DNA of 64,000 nt from an archaeon GW2011_AR5 (GTDB taxonomy: Archaea; Aenigmatarchaeota; Aenigmatarchaeia; GW2011-AR5), in assembly GCA_000806115.1 (NCBI GenBank), contig JWKQ01000001.1:217784-281783 (forward strand), in the 5' to 3' direction. Below are positions 32,530-41,604 of this stretch, one piece after another (the stretch's first letter is position 1; every line of letters begins with the position of its first letter). A program made the translations under genes and the position numbers. The notes under the pieces are model-generated. The model was not told where the DNA came from. It worked only from the letters and a program-made list of their open reading frames with translations, and did no database searches.

Positions 32530-32585
32530 TTCAAAGGAATCACATTTTTAAAAATTATTTATACCGCATAAAATAATATTATCGA

Positions 32586-35528
32586 ATGCGTAAAGCGTTT
32601 CTGGCGCTTGTTGTGTTCATTGCATTTTCTGCCGTCGTTTATGCAGATTCTTCCACCCTGTCAGTGACGTCGACACCAAGCGGCGCGACCGTGAGCAATA
32701 TCAACACCGGGCAGGTTTACTGCCAGCAGACGCCGTGCAGCGTTCAGGTCACCGTCCCGCCCAATTCCGTCAACATAAAGATTTCACTGGCTGGATACTA
32801 TGACTGGACTTATCTTGTTTATCTCTATGCCAACCAGACGACGAACGTGAGCGCTTCGCTGTCCGCGGTTCCGGCAGATCCCTGCGCCAACGTGACTTGC
32901 AACGTGCAGCCTATTTCGTTGTGCGAGGACAGCTACCTGAGAACTTATAATTCCACAGGAACCTGCAATAACGGCGTATGTTCTTATTCCTCGTCCACGG
33001 CGCTGTGCCCATACGGCTGCTACAACAGCGCATGCGTTTCCCAGAATGCCTGCTCCAACGTGACGTGCAACAGCCCGTACCCTTCTTACTGCAGCGGCAC
33101 AAATCTCGTGACCTATACTCTTCCCGGGACTTGCAACCTTGGCGTGTGCTCCTACTCGTGGTCAATGGCTAACTGCACAGGCGGCTGCTCCAACGGCGCA
33201 TGCCTGAACAGCACAAACAGCACTGGTGGAGGTTCAGGAAGCGGCAACAGCACAAACAGCACTGGTGGAGGTTCAGGAAGCGGCAACACAACAGGAAACA
33301 GCACAGGAGCGCCGCGGGACAACCAGACTTGTACCGACACGGACAGCGGACTTAATTATTATGCACAGGGAACTATCACAGACGCCGCACACCTCACCCC
33401 TCCGACCCGCACCGACTACTGCCTGAAAGACAGTCCCAACGACAATGCCCTGAATTATATCAGCGGATCTCCATACACCTATCTAATAGAAATGTATTGC
33501 AACAGCACATACAATTCCGGCATGAGCTATATTTACAACTGCACATACGGCTGCACCAACGGCGCCTGCCTGAACCAGACTGCCGATCCGTGCGCGGGCG
33601 TCACTTGCAATAATCCGCCTGCGCCGCACTGCACCAACGGCACCATGATAACGCGATATTTTTCTCCCGGCATATGCTCCGGCGGCGTCTGCTCCTATGT
33701 GCCCTACACTAACTGGACATGCTCCGGCGGCTGCTCCAACGGAGTATGCATAAACCAGACAAACGCTTGCGGCAACGCAACATGCAACATTCCACCGTTG
33801 CCTTCATGCAACGGCAATATTCTCAATACTTATTATCCGGGCAGCTGCAATGCCACTACCGGCTCGTGTGATTATCCGCTCGTCACCACTGTGTGCATCT
33901 ACGGGTGTTCAAACGGTTACTGTAACGGAGCGCCTTCGAACGGCTCCGGCGGAGGCGGCGGTTCCAGTGGCGGCGGAGGAGGCGGACCTAGAAGCGCACC
34001 GGCGTGCCCGCAAGGCTGCGAGTGCAGGTACGATGTTTATGGAAACATTGCTTCTTCCTACTGCCAGACAGAACAGAGCTGCAACTACAACGGCGTATGC
34101 GACAAAGGCGAAGGGACAGACTGCCGCGATTGCATAGGAGCTGAATGCCCCGTAAGCAAGACATGCGGCGACGGCTCACTTGTAAACTGCTACCGGTCCG
34201 AATCCGGATGCTCATGCGGAACATGCCCAATACCCGTGCGAAACCTGCCGTTGGGATGCACCCAGGCAACTGAAAACGGCTTTGTGCGCATCATATGCGA
34301 GAACCGTGTAATATGTCCGCCCATTCAAAGCGGGGCAAAAGAGAAGTGCATAAACATCGGCGGCAAGCCGTCGGTTATCAGGGGCGCAAACAGCTGTGAT
34401 ATGTTCCAGTGCGACCTGGACGGGCAGGATACTGCATCCTCAATATTTGCCGCACCTGCAGGATGCCCCTCCCCGGATGACATTTCAATGGGGCTTGAAA
34501 AATGCAGGAGCCTCAACCTGACGGGCGTCATGGCGTTCGAGGGCGGCTGTAAGATCGGCAAGTGCATTGAAAGAAGCACCGGCTGCAAGCCTCTTGCAAG
34601 GGAGTCTGTGGAAGACTGCAGGAACAGGGGCGGCAACATAATAACGTCGGTAGGCGAGAACGGATGCCCGTCGTTCACATGCGCCCGGAAAGAAAGCGAA
34701 TGTGAAAAAGACCTGCCCAAGGACGCTTACCAGAAGTGCGGGGAAAACGGCGGGCAGCTTGTCGTGAGACATGACGACGACGGATGCGTGTCATTCGCCA
34801 GCTGCCTCACGCGCGGAGAGGTCTCGGATTCGTTTGTGGAAGACATAAAGGAAGTGCCAAGCCCGACGGAGATGCTTTCAATTGCATTAAAGCTGGAGAA
34901 CCTGAGGCTTGAATTTGACAAGCTGGCGAAGAAGACAAATGACATCGCGGACTATTACAAATCCGCCGGCTCCCCTGAGGAGAACCGGTTCAGGCGCGTG
35001 TCGGACATGTTCTCTTCGGCGAAAGACAAGGTGGACGAGATAAAGACTAAGATTCGCGACAACCTGGACAGCATTGACGCGGACAAGCTGCTGCAGATAA
35101 AGCAGGATGTCAGGTACCTGAAGGACGTTGTCATAAAGGACATATTGTACGTGATGCTGAGCAGCGGCGACGACATCGAACATATCAAGAGCGGGACAAC
35201 AAAGGACTGCGGAACCGACAACAGCTGCTTTGACCGGGCGATACGGGTATGCCAGCCCGTCACATTCATGCCGGACGGAACGCGCGGCATGCTTGTCGAA
35301 CTGGACGGACTTGAGGGCGACTCGTGCGTCATGCGCGCCAGCATCCCCGAAAGCAGCCTGAGCGCAAGCGGTATAAACCCGCCGTATGAAATGACGTGCA
35401 AGATTCAGAAGTACACCCTTGGCGTGAGCAACCCCGAGAGGGACATATTCCCCTACTGCACCGGCAATTTGCTGCAGGTAATAAAAACAGGCGGAGCAGG
35501 CTCGGCTGTGAAACAAACAGCCGGATGA
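32586..35528 (+). CDS. secreted giant Cys-module protein, paralog 1 (980 aa) with an N-terminal PEGA domain
   Basis: Features: signal peptide MRKAFLALVVFIAFSAVVYA; a PEGA-like segment LSVTSTPSGATVSNINTG...ISLAGYYDW; four modules of about 50 aa with the pattern C.NVTCN.P....C......Y...G.C..G.CSY....C..GC.NG.C; and a conserved C-terminal half with a coiled-coil segment. Confidence 0.9.
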   Translation: MRKAFLALVVFIAFSAVVYADSSTLSVTSTPSGATVSNINTGQVYCQQTPCSVQVTVPPNSVNIKISLAGYYDWTYLVYLYANQTTNVSASLSAVPADPCANVTCNVQPISLCEDSYLRTYNSTGTCNNGVCSYSSSTALCPYGCYNSACVSQNACSNVTCNSPYPSYCSGTNLVTYTLPGTCNLGVCSYSWSMANCTGGCSNGACLNSTNSTGGGSGSGNSTNSTGGGSGSGNTTGNSTGAPRDNQTCTDTDSGLNYYAQGTITDAAHLTPPTRTDYCLKDSPNDNALNYISGSPYTYLIEMYCNSTYNSGMSYIYNCTYGCTNGACLNQTADPCAGVTCNNPPAPHCTNGTMITRYFSPGICSGGVCSYVPYTNWTCSGGCSNGVCINQTNACGNATCNIPPLPSCNGNILNTYYPGSCNATTGSCDYPLVTTVCIYGCSNGYCNGAPSNGSGGGGGSSGGGGGGPRSAPACPQGCECRYDVYGNIASSYCQTEQSCNYNGVCDKGEGTDCRDCIGAECPVSKTCGDGSLVNCYRSESGCSCGTCPIPVRNLPLGCTQATENGFVRIICENRVICPPIQSGAKEKCINIGGKPSVIRGANSCDMFQCDLDGQDTASSIFAAPAGCPSPDDISMGLEKCRSLNLTGVMAFEGGCKIGKCIERSTGCKPLARESVEDCRNRGGNIITSVGENGCPSFTCARKESECEKDLPKDAYQKCGENGGQLVVRHDDDGCVSFASCLTRGEVSDSFVEDIKEVPSPTEMLSIALKLENLRLEFDKLAKKTNDIADYYKSAGSPEENRFRRVSDMFSSAKDKVDEIKTKIRDNLDSIDADKLLQIKQDVRYLKDVVIKDILYVMLSSGDDIEHIKSGTTKDCGTDNSCFDRAIRVCQPVTFMPDGTRGMLVELDGLEGDSCVMRASIPESSLSASGINPPYEMTCKIQKYTLGVSNPERDIFPYCTGNLLQVIKTGGAGSAVKQTAG
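33207..33284 (+). repeat. perfect 39-bp tandem duplication inside the CDS
   Basis: AACAGCACAAACAGCACTGGTGGAGGTTCAGGAAGCGGC occurs at 33207-33245 and again at 33246-33284. It encodes NSTNSTGGGSGSG twice. Confidence 0.9.
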
Positions 35529-35537
35529 GGCGACTAC

Positions 35538-35723
35538 ATGAACAAGAAAACTTTGATACTGATTGCGATCGTACTGGCATCAACGATATTCATAAGCGGA
35601 TGCGCGCAGAGCTCGATAAAGAACGTGGAAGAAGCGAGCGAGGCTGTGACAAATGTCAGCACTGATATCGACGACGTTGCGGGCACGCTCCAGGACATCG
35701 ACTCGCAGCTTGGCGGCGGGTAG
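35538..35723 (+). CDS. 61 aa lipobox microprotein ending in GGG, cassette copy 1
   Basis: MNKKTLILIAIVLASTIFISGCAQSSIKNVEEASEAVTNVSTDIDDVAGTLQDIDSQLGGG. The lipobox-like sequence is ISGC. It starts 9 nt after the giant gene. Confidence 0.75.
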   Translation: MNKKTLILIAIVLASTIFISGCAQSSIKNVEEASEAVTNVSTDIDDVAGTLQDIDSQLGGG

Positions 35724-35829
35724 CTTTTCCTTGCATTATGACAACAGAAAGGCGCCGCGCAGGAAACGTAATTAGAGCCAATCACGGCGCAGGAAAACTT
35801 AATATACAGCCCGGAACGATGTTATTAAA

Positions 35830-38800
35830 ATGCGTAAAGCGTTTCTGGCGCTTGTTGTGTTAATCGCAATTTCTACTGTTGTTTATGCAGAAAATGAAAC
35901 CGCTCCTGTTGACCCGTGCGCTAATGTGCAATGCAACAGCCCGCCGGCAACCGCATGCGAAGGCGGCAGCGTCAAGACATATTCTTCCGCAGGCACATGT
36001 TCCGGCGGCACATGTTCATATTCTTCTTCGCTGACAAGCTGCCCGAACGGGTGCGAGAACGGGCAATGCAAGGCGAACTTCTGTGACACAGCTTCGTGCG
36101 CTCCCGCCAGCAGAACATGCCCCGACGGGTTCACGGCAAGCTGCACAAACACCTGCGACAGGACAACACAGGCGTGCAGCACGTGTGAACCGAGCTGCGC
36201 CGGACATGAGACAGCCCCGACGTCAAACGGAACCTCGGGCGGTTCCGGCGGCGGTGGAGGCGAAGGTTCATCGAACACAAGCGGTTCCGGCGGCACTTCT
36301 TCGGACGCTTGCGCCACAATGACGTGCAACACGCCGCCTGCGAATACGTGCAACGATAATTTTGTGAGGATATTCTCGTCGCCAGGCGCATGCAGTAACG
36401 GACAATGCAGCTACCCTGAAACGGGATATGCGTGCCAGAACGGATGCTCGAACGGCGCGTGCGTCAGCGGGACGGGCGGAAGCGGAGGCACCACGGATGT
36501 TTCTTGCACAGACTCTGATGGCGGAAAAAATTATTTTTCCAGGGGGACCGCCGAATCCAGAAGATCTTCCCAAGACGTTCAGGTGCTCACTGACGGCTGC
36601 ACCTCATCCAGTACGCTGGCTGAGCAATACTGCGCTTCAGATGGTTTGCGAACGGATTATTATACCTGCCCCGGCGCCTGCAGTGACGGCGCGTGCGTTG
36701 AGGGCGGCACGGCCACTAATGGAACAGGTTCGGGAGGCGGCGGGACGACAGGTCAGCATTGCGAGTCAAGACAAACGCTTGGTGTGGACGGCTCAGGCAG
36801 GTGTTCATCATTCCCAAGCACGTGCCTACCACCCGGCTGGAGAGTAGTGGAATCCTGCCCGACTGAAGTACAGTGCGATAATGATAATGTTTGTGACAAA
36901 GGCGAGGAGTATGGCTGCAATGACTGCATTGGCGCAGATTGTCCCATCAAAAAGCAATGCCCTGACGGAAGCAGCGTCAGGTGCGAAAGGACTGAAAGGG
37001 GATGCAACTGCGAGCCCTGCCGGCTGGAAGAAATCCCAGATGACTGCAGGCAGGAAACCGACCAAAGCGGACTAATACGCGTGGTGTGCGACAGGCAGCA
37101 GGAATGTCCGCCTGTGCCGCAGGAAGTGCGGCTGAAGTGTGCGGACGAGGGCGGCACGCCGAGATTCAACAAGGACCACCGCGGCTGCAACGTTTTCCAG
37201 TGCGACTTCGGCGGAGAGAAAGGCAGCTCACCGGTATTCGCGAGCCGCGCGAACTGTCCGTCGCCTGATGCCGTCATAGCTTCGCTCGAGAAATGCAGGG
37301 ACTTGGGGCTGCCCGGCGTTATAGGCTTCGAGGGCGGCTGCAAGATAGGCAAGTGCCAGCAGCGCGAGGAGCGGCACGAGTGCCCGAATCCCACCGAGCC
37401 CGAGAAAATGGAGATGGAAAAGAAATGCAGAGAGGAGGGACAACAGCTTGTCTTCCAGTTTGACGGACAATGCAACCAGCCGAAGTGCGGACAGCGGAGA
37501 GGTAGCCAGTGCGAACGCGACCTGCCGAAGGAGGCTTATGACAGATGCGCCGACGGGGGCGGACAGCTCGTTGTGAGACGAAGCCAGGACGGATGCGTGT
37601 CATACTCGAACTGCATCAGAAGAGGAAACGCCGAGGAATCACTTGTCGACGACATTGACGAGATTCCGGACACGACCGAGTTGCTTTCCATAGCATTCAA
37701 GCTTGAGGAGCTGAAGCTTGAGTTTGACAAATTGTCCGCAAAAACGAATGACATAGCCGAATATTACAAGTCTACAGGCTCATCTGAAGAGAAGAGGTTC
37801 CGCCGGGTGTCGGACATGTTCTCGTCGGCGAAGGACAAGGTCGACGAGGTAAAGACAAAGCTGAAGGACAGGGCGAGGGATATCGACAAGGACGACGTGC
37901 TTGAGATAAAGCAGGATCTCAGGTATCTAAAGGACGTCGTGCTCAAGGACATACTGTTTATGATGCTCGGCAGCGGAGAAGAAATCGAAGAGATAAAGAG
38001 CGGTTCTGTAAAGAGCTGCGGCACTGACGAGAGCTGCTTCGACAGGGGATTCCGCGTCTGCCAGCCGCTCACGTTCAGGCCTGACGGAAGGGAAGGGCCT
38101 GTTGTTGAAGTGACGGGGCTTGACGGCGACGCGTGCGTGATGGAGGTCAAAATGGAAGCGGGACAGGGGCCTCCGGGAGGACCTTACTCAATGACGTGCA
38201 AGATTCAGAAGTACACATTGGGCGTGAGCAACCCGGAGACGGATATATTCCCGTACTGCTCCGGCAACCTTCTTGACATGATAAAGAAGTATGGAAACGG
38301 GCCTCCGGGCGTTCCGGGAAAGTGCAGCGGCGACGAATGCAAGGACTACTGCGGACGGGGGCCGACAGAGGCAAAGGAATGCCTGCAATACATGAGCGAT
38401 GTCCTGCCGCCTGAGGCGAAGCAGCACCTGACGGCGCTTGCTGAAGGCAAAAGTCCCGGCGGCTTTGGATTCGGAGGAAGAGATGAATCCGGGGACGACT
38501 TCGGCGAGGGCGAGTTCCGCGATGACTTCGGAGGCGATGATTTCAATCAGGGAGAGTTTCAGGACGATTTCAGCGGAGGCGGCGAATTTGAAGGGGAGTT
38601 CAACGAAGAATTCGGCGGGCAGCAGCTCTGCCCAGATGGCGACTGCGACGACTTCGAGCAGCGCACGGGCGCGTGTCCGCAGGATTGCGGCGGCTCTTCA
38701 GCTTCAGGCGGAGGCGGGGGCGAGTTTGAAAACGAGTTTGAAGGCGGCTTTGAATCAGGAAGTTCAAGCGGCGGAGGCGGCGGCTCCGGCGAATGCAGCG

Positions 38801-38868
38801 GCTGCCTGAACAATGGAATATGTGATCAGGGCGAATGCAGCGACTGCGGAGACTGCCGAAGAAGATAG
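35830..38868 (+). CDS. secreted giant Cys-module protein, paralog 2 (1012 aa) with an acidic D/E/F/G-rich C-terminal extension
   Basis: The first 13 residues (MRKAFLALVVLIA) match paralog 1 at all but one position. It carries the same Cys modules and a conserved C-terminal half (DLPKEAYDRCADGGGQLVVRR...). The tail contains GDDFGEGEFRDDFGGDDFNQGEFQDDF. Confidence 0.9.
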   Translation: MRKAFLALVVLIAISTVVYAENETAPVDPCANVQCNSPPATACEGGSVKTYSSAGTCSGGTCSYSSSLTSCPNGCENGQCKANFCDTASCAPASRTCPDGFTASCTNTCDRTTQACSTCEPSCAGHETAPTSNGTSGGSGGGGGEGSSNTSGSGGTSSDACATMTCNTPPANTCNDNFVRIFSSPGACSNGQCSYPETGYACQNGCSNGACVSGTGGSGGTTDVSCTDSDGGKNYFSRGTAESRRSSQDVQVLTDGCTSSSTLAEQYCASDGLRTDYYTCPGACSDGACVEGGTATNGTGSGGGGTTGQHCESRQTLGVDGSGRCSSFPSTCLPPGWRVVESCPTEVQCDNDNVCDKGEEYGCNDCIGADCPIKKQCPDGSSVRCERTERGCNCEPCRLEEIPDDCRQETDQSGLIRVVCDRQQECPPVPQEVRLKCADEGGTPRFNKDHRGCNVFQCDFGGEKGSSPVFASRANCPSPDAVIASLEKCRDLGLPGVIGFEGGCKIGKCQQREERHECPNPTEPEKMEMEKKCREEGQQLVFQFDGQCNQPKCGQRRGSQCERDLPKEAYDRCADGGGQLVVRRSQDGCVSYSNCIRRGNAEESLVDDIDEIPDTTELLSIAFKLEELKLEFDKLSAKTNDIAEYYKSTGSSEEKRFRRVSDMFSSAKDKVDEVKTKLKDRARDIDKDDVLEIKQDLRYLKDVVLKDILFMMLGSGEEIEEIKSGSVKSCGTDESCFDRGFRVCQPLTFRPDGREGPVVEVTGLDGDACVMEVKMEAGQGPPGGPYSMTCKIQKYTLGVSNPETDIFPYCSGNLLDMIKKYGNGPPGVPGKCSGDECKDYCGRGPTEAKECLQYMSDVLPPEAKQHLTALAEGKSPGGFGFGGRDESGDDFGEGEFRDDFGGDDFNQGEFQDDFSGGGEFEGEFNEEFGGQQLCPDGDCDDFEQRTGACPQDCGGSSASGGGGGEFENEFEGGFESGSSSGGGGGSGECSGCLNNGICDQGECSDCGDCRRR

Positions 38869-38880
38869 GAGGTTATGCAA

Positions 38881-39066
38881 ATGAACAAGAAGGCAATGGT
38901 GTTGATAATCCTTGTGCTGACATCCATGGTTTTCATAAGCGGATGCGCGCAGAGCTCGATAAAGAACGTTGAAGAAGCGAGCGAGGCTGTGACGAACGTG
39001 TCGACAGACATCGACGACGTTGCGGGCACGCTCCAGGACATCGACTCGCAGCTTGGCGGCGGGTAA
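38881..39066 (+). CDS. 61 aa lipobox microprotein ending in GGG, cassette copy 2
   Basis: ORF 38875..39066. The ATG at 38881 (MNKKAMVLIILVLTSMVFISGC...) is preferred by analogy with copy 1 and by its spacing from GGAGGT. The last 45 residues are identical to copy 1. Confidence 0.75.
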   Translation: MNKKAMVLIILVLTSMVFISGCAQSSIKNVEEASEAVTNVSTDIDDVAGTLQDIDSQLGGG

Positions 39067-39127: not shown

Positions 39128-39553
39128 ATGAAGATATTCGGAAAGACCATGAAGGAATACCTGTGGCCAGTAAAATATCATGTTCTGGTTTCTGTACTGG
39201 TTGTTATTTTCCAGTATTATGTTGCAGCTCCACTGTCGGATAGGTATCCTTTTCTCCTGAACCTCACGCAGGCGCTTTGGGCCTTGATTGTCGCGCTTGC
39301 GGTGATGAAGCTTGTCAAGGAGCACAATTTTAACATGAAAAACGTGATAGTAGCAGGCATCATTTTCTCGATCATAATTCACGGGCTGAAGGCATTCTTT
39401 TTTCGCGCATTCCTGTTTCCATACAGCATCCCCACCGAGCAGGTCCCGGCACAGCTCATGGGGAAATTCCTTTACGGAAGCTCTCTTGTAATGGCCACTG
39501 CAATCATCATCGGCGCCGTATTCATCTATGCAAAAAAGAAAAAGCTTCTGTAG
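39128..39553 (+). CDS. integral membrane protein (141 aa)
   Basis: Four hydrophobic segments. No family recognised. Confidence 0.65.
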   Translation: MKIFGKTMKEYLWPVKYHVLVSVLVVIFQYYVAAPLSDRYPFLLNLTQALWALIVALAVMKLVKEHNFNMKNVIVAGIIFSIIIHGLKAFFFRAFLFPYSIPTEQVPAQLMGKFLYGSSLVMATAIIIGAVFIYAKKKKLL

Positions 39554-39673: not shown

Positions 39674-40204
39674 GTGCCGCGCGAGAATTTTGTTCTTCCG
39701 GAGCAGGGACGCTACGCCTACGCAAACTATCCGCTGCCGATACCCGGGCAGCAGACTATCTCGCAGCCGCTAACAGTGGCGGTCATGACAGAAGCGCTTG
39801 AGGCGCGACGCGGCGACAAGATTCTTGAGGTCGGGACAGGCTCAGGATACCAGGCTGCTATATTGTCGGAAATCGTCGGGACGACCGGAAAAATAATCAC
39901 CACTGAAATAATTCCCGAGCTGTTTGAGTTCGCCAAGAAGAATCTTGCAGGATATGAAAACACGAAAGTGATATGCGCCGACGGCTCAAAAGGCTATCCT
40001 CCGGAAAAACCTTACGACGGGATAATCGTAACGGCAAGCGCGCCGAGCGTGCCCGAGCCGCTCACGGAGCAGCTGAAGGAAGGCGGACGGCTGGTCATAC
40101 CTGTAGGCGACCAGATGATAATTGTGGAAAAGAAAGACGGACTGCAGCAGAAATTCCTCGGCTATTACGCATTCGTGCCGCTCACCGGGAAACACGGACA
40201 CTAG
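39674..40204 (+). CDS. pcm: protein-L-isoaspartate O-methyltransferase; conserved N-terminal coding sequence continues upstream to 39605 but is cut off from ATG 39593 by an in-frame TAA
   Basis: Features: TISQPLTVAVMTEAL, ILEVGTGSGYQAAILSEIVG and GGRLVIPVG. The ORF track starts at GTG 39674. Upstream, in the same frame, the reading is MDK*QLLRELIEGKYLRTRVVIDAFRK. Confidence 0.85.
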   Translation: MPRENFVLPEQGRYAYANYPLPIPGQQTISQPLTVAVMTEALEARRGDKILEVGTGSGYQAAILSEIVGTTGKIITTEIIPELFEFAKKNLAGYENTKVICADGSKGYPPEKPYDGIIVTASAPSVPEPLTEQLKEGGRLVIPVGDQMIIVEKKDGLQQKFLGYYAFVPLTGKHGH

Positions 40205-40778
40205 CGTTCCCATTCATGGCGTCAAACTTGAAGAAGTAAGCGTGTACATCAGGAAATTCTTCTTTCAGTTCCATGTTTGAGTTGTCATCGCAGTAAAATC
40301 TTCCATAGCTCTCCGCCCAATGATCGTATGAACCCATCAGGGCTGCAGGCGTGAGGTTTCTAAAACGCGAATTCTGTGACGGGAAACCGTAAGCTTCATC
40401 AACCATATGACCTGCTTCGTGCAGTTCCGGAACGGTCATTCCATTTGAGGAGCCGCAGGTTTCGGAGTTCTCGGCGACATAGGCTTTTTTGTTGGCGTAA
40501 CCTGCGCCTGCAATGCTCAATAGGATAAGCTCCGACCTTCCAAGACCTTCGAGACTTGACACGCGGTCAAATATCACGAACTCCCCTCCGAATCCGTTCA
40601 GCTTCGCCCTCATGGGCTCAGGAACCCTTTGTAGATAACGGAGGATTTTCCCAACTTTTCTGCCGTCAGGGTTTTTTGAGACAACTGAATACCTTATTTC
40701 TTCAGACATGCGTTCAACAGGGCTGTAAATTGGCGACAGAAGTACAGCTGCAATGCCCAGTGCAGGCAAAAAACGCAT
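40182..40778 (-). CDS. secreted zinc metallopeptidase-like protein (HExxH)
   Basis: The internal start at 40778 gives MRFLPALGIAAVLLSPIYSP, which looks like a signal peptide. VPELHEAGHMVDEAYG has the form HExGHxxD, as in M34/ATLF-like peptidases. The 3' end overlaps pcm by 23 nt in convergent orientation. Confidence 0.6.
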   Translation of the reverse strand: MRFLPALGIAAVLLSPIYSPVERMSEEIRYSVVSKNPDGRKVGKILRYLQRVPEPMRAKLNGFGGEFVIFDRVSSLEGLGRSELILLSIAGAGYANKKAYVAENSETCGSSNGMTVPELHEAGHMVDEAYGFPSQNSRFRNLTPAALMGSYDHWAESYGRFYCDDNSNMELKEEFPDVHAYFFKFDAMNGNASVRVSR

Positions 40779-40818
40779 GTGAAAACTATAATAAAAGTCT
40801 TTATAACATAAATTTCTC

Positions 40819-41604
40819 ATGATAGACGCGCACTGCCACATGGAATACATGGAAGACCCCGACGACATAATATATCATGCCAAGAAGGCAGGAATGAGCG
40901 CGATAGTTACCTCCATCGCAGACATCAAGGACAGGGAAAAAGTAATCGCGATGAAGAAGAAGCATCCGGACTTCATATTCATCTGCCTCGGCTTCCACCC
41001 CGAGATAATGGGCAAATATGCTTCTGAAGATATTGACGACTATATGGAATTCATCAGGCAGAACAGGAAATTAATATCCGCAATCGGCGAGGTGGGCACC
41101 GACTACAACTGGCTGCCAAAAAGCGAGGACCAGGCGAAGTCGCAGATTATTTTTGAAAAATTCATTGATCTTTCAAAGGAGCTCGGACTCCCGCTTGTCG
41201 TACACTCGAGAAACGGAAGAGACAACAGGGAAGGCGAGAACGACGGGATAGGGGATGCAATAGAGATCCTGCGAAACAGGGGATGCAAGGACGTGATGAT
41301 GCACTGCTTCTCCGGAAATGAAGCACAGCTGAAAGACTGCCTGGAGCAGGGCTGGCTGATTTCTTACGCAACCGTTCTCGTGAAGAGCCCCAAACACCAG
41401 AAATTAGCTAAAATGACGCCGCCGGAGCAGATGGTTCTCGAGACTGATTCGCCGTGGCTCGACCCGGACAGCAAGGAACTTGTGAACAGGCCGTGGAAAA
41501 TAGAGAGGAGCGCAGAGATATTAGCCGGCATGATGAATATTGACAAGGATGAAATCCTTCGCACGACAGAGAAAAACGCCAGAAGGTTCTTCAGGATTGG
41601 ATGA
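40819..41604 (+). CDS. tatD: TatD-family metal-dependent hydrolase
   Basis: Features: MIDAHCHMEY, a GEVGTDY-type motif, LVVHSR and METDSPWL. Confidence 0.88.
   Translation: MIDAHCHMEYMEDPDDIIYHAKKAGMSAIVTSIADIKDREKVIAMKKKHPDFIFICLGFHPEIMGKYASEDIDDYMEFIRQNRKLISAIGEVGTDYNWLPKSEDQAKSQIIFEKFIDLSKELGLPLVVHSRNGRDNREGENDGIGDAIEILRNRGCKDVMMHCFSGNEAQLKDCLEQGWLISYATVLVKSPKHQKLAKMTPPEQMVLETDSPWLDPDSKELVNRPWKIERSAEILAGMMNIDKDEILRTTEKNARRFFRIG

Follow-up and report, generated by a model that had tools for sequence, protein, structure and literature searches.

In the genome of the archaeon GW2011_AR5 (Aenigmatarchaeota, assembly GCA_000806115.1), two very small open reading frames lie directly behind two large genes, and the question raised by this locus is what the small product does and how it is related to its large neighbor. 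The window, i.e., the whole stretch of DNA analyzed (64,000 nucleotides, positions 217,784 to 281,783 of the forward strand of contig JWKQ01000001.1), belongs to a genome of 858 kb in three contigs with a completeness of 87.6%, and it holds both copies of the microprotein gene found in that genome. Two tandem cassettes were recognized on the + strand, a 980-aa gene (giant1) followed by a 61-aa ORF (micro1) and a 1012-aa gene (giant2) followed by a second 61-aa ORF (micro2). The initial annotation, made from the sequence alone, had reported the two small ORFs, and both were recovered at 35538-35723 and 38881-39066 with 61 codons for amino acids each. It had also linked each of them to a “giant” gene; the linked large genes are real, their size being that given above. 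The features of the cassettes are collected in Table 1.

Table 1. Features of the two cassettes and their surroundings, numbered from the first letter of the window.
Feature	Position	Strand	Description
TATA-like box TTTATA	32558..32563	+	22 nt before giant1 ATG; read from sequence
giant1, 980 aa	32586..35528	+	Sec-type signal peptide (…VYA↓D); no membrane anchor
giant1 signal peptide codons	32586-32651		low synonymous divergence between copies
Linker repeat of giant1	33207-33284		NSTNSTGGGSGSG units
giant1 residues 760-858, three long helices	34863..35159	+	AlphaFold pLDDT 90-95 (fusion residues 261-359); alignments A2 and A7
giant1 residues 862-969, conserved Cys-containing alpha/beta domain	35169..35492	+	CGxDxxCFDRAxRxC … MTCKIxxYxLG … PYCxG
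SD-like GAGG	35527..35530	+	overlaps giant1 stop TGA (35526-35528); 7 nt before micro1 ATG
micro1, 61 aa	35538..35723	+	end QLGGG
micro1 predicted signal peptide, codons 1-21	35538-35600	+
micro1 lipobox I-S-G-C, Cys22	35601-35603	+
micro1 amphipathic heptad helix, ~codons 27-58	35616-35711	+
Six-codon synonymous patch (codons 38-43)	35649..35666	+	counterpart in copy 2: 38992-39009
Sequon N39-V-S41, micro1 codons 39-41	35652-35660		counterpart in copy 2: 38995-39003
TATA-like box TTAATATA	35799..35806	+	23 nt before giant2 ATG
giant2, 1012 aa	35830..38868	+	giant1 paralogue; acidic tail ends in family-typical CSGCLNNGICDQGECSDCGDC motif
giant2 signal peptide codons	35830-35895		low synonymous divergence between copies
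Terminal Cys-rich motif of giant2	38776-38868		right before the micro gene
SD GGAGG	38868..38872	+	overlaps giant2 stop TAG (38866-38868); 8 nt before micro2 ATG 38881
micro2, 61 aa	38881..39066	+	Cys22 at 38944-38946
Hydrophobic 141-aa ORF	39128-39553		directly after cassette 2
pcm and TatD genes	39674-41604

TATA-like boxes were found before both large genes, and the micro genes have none. Judged from the general geometry of archaeal promoters, the TTTATA box suggests a leaderless-type promoter for cassette 1, and cassette 2 appears to have a putative promoter of its own at TTAATATA. The gap between the stop codon of the large gene and the ATG of the small one measures 9 nt in cassette 1 and 12 nt in cassette 2, and this spacing, together with the GAGG or GGAGG present in both gaps, fits the link between giant and micro that had been claimed. 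In copy 2, the ATG at 38881 lies 8 nt after the GGAGG and an alternative ATG at 38875 only 2 nt after it, which makes the former the better start of micro2. A leaderless first gene followed by a downstream gene led by an SD sequence is the usual archaeal pattern. The layout supports, short of proof, a predicted co-transcription and coupled translation of the large and small genes. The ORF directly after cassette 2 had no family match; homologues with 81–82% identity occupy the same position in two loci of other assemblies (L022 and L026).

Both micro products start with MNKK and continue with a hydrophobic stretch, the lipobox I-S-G-C and then AQSSIKNVEEASEAVTNVSTDIDDVAGTLQDIDSQLGGG, so that the signal peptide, the ISGC lipobox-like motif and the acidic remainder described at the outset were borne out by both translations. 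This N-terminus (MNKK, 14 hydrophobic residues and I-S-G-C) has the lipobox precursor pattern [LVI][ASTVI][GAS]-Cys, and SSIKNVEEASEAVTNVSTDIDDVAGTLQDIDSQLGGG is an example of the peptide expected after predicted cleavage. When the two copies were compared codon by codon, residues 18–61 (FISGC plus 39 residues) were identical. The invariant C-terminal stretch is therefore of 44 residues and not of 45, and 39 identical residues follow the Cys where 42 had been counted. The signal peptides do differ, with eight amino-acid changes in codons 5–17. Across codons 18–61, seven codons differ by a total of 9 nt, namely codon 30 (GTG/GTT) and the six consecutive codons 38–43, including AGC/TCG at Ser41; careful alignment confirmed that all of these differences are synonymous, as had been stated. 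The stop codons are TAG and TAA, respectively. Since synonymous sites make up only ~22% of the identical stretch (29.7 of 132) and yet all seven differing codons are silent, the identity of the two peptides is not due to chance. The AGC/TCG switch at Ser41 is of a kind that single synonymous steps cannot reach. The same serine closes an N-glycosylation sequon, N39-V-S41, which is present in most members of the family described below (N in 32 and S in 39 of 45 aligned sequences).

The initial annotation had attributed this near-identity to strong purifying selection. In the window, the mature part of the micro genes showed a dS of 0.26 with no amino-acid change, the signal-peptide codons a saturated dS (pS 0.75) with a dN of 0.31, and the cores of the giants a dS of 1.1–2.0 with a dN of 0.22–0.55. 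A mature-part dS this far below that of the cores indicates that the 3′ end of the cassette was homogenized as well, by gene conversion or by mosaic recombination. The six-codon patch, flanked by DNA that is identical between the copies, looks like the signature of a mosaic tract. At the other end, the first 22 codons of the giants had a dS of 0.20 and a dN of 0.13; their signal-peptide regions thus show a dS of ~0.2 as compared with 1.1–2.2 in the rest, and these 5′ ends seem to have been homogenized like the micro genes at the 3′ ends. That both ends of the cassette are less diverged synonymously than its middle points to gene conversion.

The cleanest case for selection came from a member of a different genus (G012), which carries two unlinked giant-micro pairs on different contigs. 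Its two mature peptides are separated by 14 synonymous and two non-synonymous differences (dS 0.83, dN 0.021), its signal peptides have a dS of 0.76 and a dN of 0.57, and its giants' cores a dS of 1.29 and a dN of 0.23. The resulting dN/dS is ~0.025 for the mature peptide, 0.18 for the core of the large protein and ~0.75 for the signal peptide. On these sequence comparisons, strong purifying selection on the mature peptide is demonstrable; by the same estimates, the mature peptide is several-fold more constrained than the conserved core of its partner, and the signal peptide is almost free within hydrophobic limits. The selection claimed is thus real, but in the window part of the near-identity is ascribed to gene conversion.

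The microprotein belongs to a real, unannotated and unnamed family. A profile search against 1.84 billion representative proteins yielded 341 clusters (at 50% identity) with E ≤ 0.001, and 121 with E ≤ 1e-10, so that homologues of what had been presented as a 42-residue motif do exist; Pfam and NCBIfam contain no model for the microprotein or for the large protein. Nearly all members have 55–86 aa, with a match that reaches the C-terminus or ends within a few residues of it, and no fusion of a micro-like helix to a larger protein was found among the best 150. Clear homologues were detected in ~31 of 60 genomes of relatives, and the mature peptides share 44–60% identity between genera. The invariance noticed at first is a property of the copies in one genome; in an alignment of 26 sequences of the family, F18, G21, C22, L51 and D55 alone were invariant. 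Positions 27, 37, 40, 44, 47, 51, 54 and 58 are V, I, L, M or F in 98–100% of a 45-member alignment, and from position 33 the hydrophobic positions are spaced 4-3-4-3-4-3-4, i.e., they form an unbroken heptad stripe of a/d positions. With a net charge of -7 here and of -1 to -11 in the family, the mature peptide is acidic.

Furthermore, the family varies in its N-terminus. Among the best 150 representatives, ~135 have a lipobox-type Cys, mostly as VSGC or ISGC, and ~14 (~10%) lack the Cys and carry an N-terminal TM helix, often after a short basic cytoplasmic segment. The C-terminal helix is the same in both groups. Since the type of anchor varies and the helix is kept, the N-terminus is an interchangeable membrane anchor and the helix the conserved functional part. 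The terminal GGG, singled out in the initial annotation as unusual, is not family-wide: the C-terminus is exactly ...[DE]I[D]xxLG (typically ...DIDxxLG) in 84 of these 150 members, and on this alignment the two extra terminal glycines of the window are a lineage feature of a family that ends in LG. A ubiquitin-like small modifier with C-terminal Gly-Gly (SAMP/Urm1/ThiS), which would have a beta-grasp fold and be cytoplasmic, was discarded as an identity for the microprotein in view of its all-helical model, its signal peptide and its non-conserved Gly-Gly end. A duplicated piece of the large protein was likewise discarded as the origin of the micro helix (hhalign probability 0.2%, with BLASTP also against it).

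These data also bear on whether the small ORFs are translated at all. If they were not, the large genes would have to carry a conserved nucleic-acid element at their 3′ end, as the unusual DNA-level similarity of the 3′ part in this genome might suggest; nevertheless, next to no credit can be given to this explanation, given the hundreds of protein-level homologues with open frames of constant length, the dN/dS accompanied by 14 synonymous changes in G012, and the signal-peptide, lipobox and heptad features that are kept while the DNA diverges.

The association of the small gene with the large one extends beyond the window. Related loci were found by alignment of the large protein and belong to metagenome-assembled genomes (MAGs) of Aenigmatarchaeota, many of them from groundwater; in all 19 relatives' loci first fetched, a homologue of the C-terminal half of the large protein is directly followed by a micro ORF. 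When 370 Aenigmatarchaeota genomes were then searched with profiles of both proteins and the positions were tabulated, 81 of 94 micro matches, in 74 genomes, lay downstream of a large-protein core on the same strand. Conversely, a micro gene followed 71 of 81 strong large-protein cores, most exceptions being contig ends or weak matches. Homologues are therefore linked to similar large genes elsewhere, and the linkage proposed for the window is kept phylum-wide, together with a translational-coupling layout: the micro ATG is located 0–13 nt past the stop codon of the large gene, or overlaps it, in 25 of 38 loci (overlap in five), and in many genera the relatives have GGTGA or GGAGG over the last codons or the stop codon of the large gene. 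The two ORFs of a pair are in frame in both cassettes of the window. Programmed read-through joining them was rejected, since of the 38 relatives' loci with a micro gene only eight keep both ORFs in one frame, and two of these eight have further stops in between.

The neighborhood is stable in many genera, with an HTH regulator upstream and pcm and TatD downstream, and the tandem duplication of the window is read as having arisen in place. Behind the giant-micro pair, 16 fetched loci from several genera carry pcm (protein-L-isoaspartate methyltransferase) and seven carry TatD (the window and L022–L049). This adjacency may be simple conserved gene order, or protein repair may be tied to a long-lived surface protein.

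The order of a large gene for an exported protein and a tiny lipobox gene behind it recalls the colicin operons, in which release proteins are encoded downstream of the large exported protein, and a small lipoprotein of the release or lysis type could accordingly be imagined to help the large protein exit the cell. We consider this very improbable: the large proteins have Sec signal peptides of their own, no Pfam match to the colicin lysis family appeared at E up to 1, and neither the acidic heptad helix nor the TM-anchored variants resemble release proteins.

The large protein has ~80 cysteines, a Sec-type signal peptide, a variable N-terminal half and a conserved C-terminal core. The N-terminal half of giant1 comprises a PEGA domain, Cys-rich modules and a sequon-rich linker, and that of homologues elsewhere contains Kazal-like or fn3 modules; the cores of giant1 and giant2 share ~65–69% identity in their helical and alpha/beta parts. 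AlphaFold builds the core from four small alpha/beta Cys modules, a set of three long helices and an alpha/beta domain, the three helices of giant1 (residues 760–858) being the best-conserved part of the protein. No TM-like or other hydrophobic segment beyond the N-terminal signal was found in any of 53 large-protein homologues, and the large protein is on this account without an anchor of its own. Foldseek against the PDB gave no significant fold match for the core (best E 0.37), a PDB sequence search returned nothing known for either protein, and Pfam, NCBIfam and Foldseek revealed no toxin-like domain in the large proteins. The NCBI entries of the homologues, named for a ‘Candidatus Aenigmarchaeota/Aenigmatarchaeota archaeon’, are all annotated as ‘hypothetical protein’. 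The S-layer proteins of Aenigmatarchaeota have been predicted to be MSTP-like (bioRxiv 10.1101/2024.05.28.596244); the Methanosarcina-type S-layer family PF07752 had no match in this genome. From the architecture, our guess is an adhesin or host-contact role for the large protein.

Several details of the large proteins were recorded along the way. Most of them end, right before the micro gene, in the strongly conserved motif CSGCLxNGxCDxGECSxCxDC. A similar motif, NGVCDKGE..C.DC, opens the conserved core, and giant1 is devoid of the terminal copy; in one homologue, a nearby tail segment matches RET_CRD (Pfam). In a public variant of giant1 (P0012, 967 aa), otherwise identical, one NSTNSTGGGSGSG unit is missing, which shows that assemblies of this organism are polymorphic for the perfect 39-bp tandem duplication in the sequon-rich linker.

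The relation of the helix to the large protein was modeled with a fusion in which the TGA, read as Trp, joins giant1 residues 500–980 in frame to micro1. The alignment used (A7) combined trimmed cores with seven in-frame read-through fusions that occur naturally in relatives, and it contained no rows of the microprotein alone; alignments A3–A6 were set aside because MAFFT had placed tails or C-terminal domains of large proteins on the micro columns, once with CSGC against ISGC. The fusion model had a pTM of 0.80, with a pLDDT of 81–90 in the micro helix and of 34–46 in the signal-peptide “linker”. The microprotein modeled alone, from a deeper alignment of 45 rows, gave the same helix a pLDDT of 53–66 and a pTM of 0.29. 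Since the linker beside it is disordered, the gain of 25–30 points is an indirect sign that the helix may lie against the confidently modeled core, its three-helix bundle being the most plausible place; giant1 residues 760–858 are thus the proposed docking site. A search of the large proteins for a segment more alike within than between genomes, as a locator of the binding site, gave no clear candidate.

Taken together, these results lead to a reading to which we give about an even chance of being right, namely that Aenigmatarchaeota share a two-gene surface-protein module in which the microprotein serves as the membrane-anchor subunit. The analysis established the reality of the genes, the family, the strict synteny, the coupling layout, the interchangeable anchors, the lack of an anchor in the large proteins and the very strong constraint under which the helix has evolved. 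What we infer is the lipidation, the physical binding and the stoichiometry. The large gene would probably be expressed as a leaderless message from its own TATA box, and the micro gene would be translated by coupling through the SD sequence that overlaps the stop codon of the large gene, so that both products would be made together. Both would be exported by Sec. The large cysteine-rich protein would shed an ordinary signal peptide and have nothing else to hold it on the cell. Cys22 of the microprotein would be lipidated, presumably with thioether-linked archaeol as in Haloferax lipoproteins, and ~10% of the family would keep an uncleaved N-terminal TM helix instead of the lipid. The 30-residue amphipathic heptad helix would then pack on the conserved three-helix bundle of the large protein and thereby tether the N-terminal half, which is variable and probably adhesive, to the surface of the cell.

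The strict pairing and the coupling layout count in favor of such a tether, as does the complementary logic of large proteins without an anchor and microproteins with one. So do the interchangeable lipid and TM anchors, the highly constrained helix and its gain in pLDDT, and also the literature on archaeal lipoproteins together with ~15 other ORFs of this genome that carry a lipobox of the ISGC or VAGC style. Two observations count against it. The two microproteins are identical and the giants' cores only 65–69% identical, whereas divergence would be expected at an interface co-adapted strictly one to one; the identity fits binding to the most conserved helices, and equally a role independent of the giants. 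In addition, some paralogues of the large gene have no micro gene. One of them (L051, 2501-4757, in MAG CSMAG_2771) has three tandem C-terminal alpha/beta domains and is followed instead by a 136-aa ORF with paired Cys-x-x-Cys motifs, our guess for which is an aIF2-beta-like protein; the other paralogue of this MAG (L050) is followed by a micro gene.

The initial annotation had offered a partner, chaperone, anchor or immunity-like factor as possible roles. The same evidence of binding (synteny, coupling and the gain in AlphaFold confidence) could also be explained if the microprotein bound the large protein as an assembly factor, chaperone or ‘immunity-like’ inhibitor, for example by capping the helical bundle until the protein had folded or oligomerized. 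This seems unlikely. The large proteins would be left without other means of retention on the cell, the N-terminus of the microprotein is always some membrane anchor, of which a transient chaperone would have no need, and no toxin-like domain turned up in the large proteins. The roles of partner and anchor are favored over those of chaperone or immunity-like factor.

A different account would make the microprotein an envelope spacer like Braun's lipoprotein (Lpp), i.e., an abundant lipid-anchored homo-oligomeric coiled coil that organizes the space between the membrane and a surface layer and is co-expressed with the large protein but does not bind it specifically. The design is indeed similar to that of Lpp and the OprI alanine-zipper lipoproteins, tiny exported lipobox-Cys proteins of Gram-negative bacteria that consist of little more than a heptad helix connecting the membrane with a further layer of the envelope. 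The best NCBIfam match of the microprotein was Lpp itself (NF011925), far below its cut-off at 22.8 bits against 108, with NF040598 at 18.2 against 43. Moreover, the micro paralogues of one genome are identical or nearly so, as expected if they co-assembled. We nevertheless hold this account to be improbable, since strict phylum-wide pairing and coupling can hardly be accounted for unless the two proteins are directly linked in function, the confidence of the helix rises only alongside the large-protein core, and the mature part has no homology to Lpp. Homology to Lpp was rejected by hhalign against the mature E. coli protein (probability 1%), as only the signal peptide and lipobox align. The microprotein further differs from Lpp in being always paired with one particular large gene and in ending in Leu-Gly instead of a Lys cross-linked to murein. 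The archaeal host has no murein.

A bolder proposal, to which we would give little credence, combines both ideas: the lipid-anchored coiled-coil peptide would be a functional counterpart of Braun's lipoprotein whose terminal Leu-Gly is locked, tightly or even covalently, into the adhesin core, setting the distance between the membrane and the surface protein and being common to all paralogous adhesins. One microprotein serving all of them would explain the concerted evolution of the micro genes within a genome.

Among known systems, the tether reading has its nearest counterpart in SlaA/SlaB of the Sulfolobales, where a large secreted surface subunit likewise lacks an anchor and is combined with a separately encoded, membrane-anchored partner that has a helical or coiled-coil stalk. 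In that system, the separate anchor is conserved while the exposed protein varies (PMC12175726). The giant-micro pair is of the same type, an anchorless secreted subunit and an anchored partner encoded side by side. The differences are that the microprotein has only ~40 residues in its mature form with an N-terminal lipid or TM anchor, that the large protein is cysteine-rich, and that a lattice is not known for it. No homology to SlaA/SlaB or to any S-layer protein was detected for either protein (Pfam, PDB sequence and Foldseek). The likeness to SlaA/SlaB and to Lpp is, in our comparison, one of analogy and not of membership.

How DPANN archaea such as Aenigmatarchaeota, which live in attachment to other cells, hold and display their surface proteins is poorly understood. 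The microprotein family defined here, unannotated and comprising a few hundred sequence clusters, now has a concrete candidate role, that of tether for a cysteine-rich surface protein that is conserved but varies in its N-terminal part. If this is true, the pair would represent a minimal archaeal split design of “display subunit plus anchor subunit”, and the large partner would be a candidate host-contact protein. The locus also illustrates that genes of ~60 codons, often ignored by gene callers and annotators, can rank among the most constrained of a locus.

The predicted lipid anchor finally relates the microprotein to the lipoproteins handled by AliA/AliB of Haloferax volcanii, with which it shares a Sec-type signal peptide ending in [LVI][ASTVI][GAS]C. 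Archaeal lipoproteins carry thioether-linked archaeol in Haloferax and are predicted to be prevalent in DPANN, and AliA (arCOG02177) is reported there ‘with some gaps’ (PMC12462473). The known AliA/AliB substrates differ from the microprotein in being mostly solute-binding proteins and enzymes of normal size. A limited literature search found no description of a coiled-coil lipoprotein of ~40 residues dedicated to one partner. If the tether reading is true, the microprotein would be a very small and easily tagged substrate for the newly opened field of archaeal lipoprotein biogenesis. Additionally, four neighboring ORFs of 272–386 aa with a near-identical lipobox signal peptide start (…LLIASVVLISGC) were noticed on contig C2 at ~249.5–254.5 kb, a group that resembles a cluster of paralogous predicted lipoproteins.
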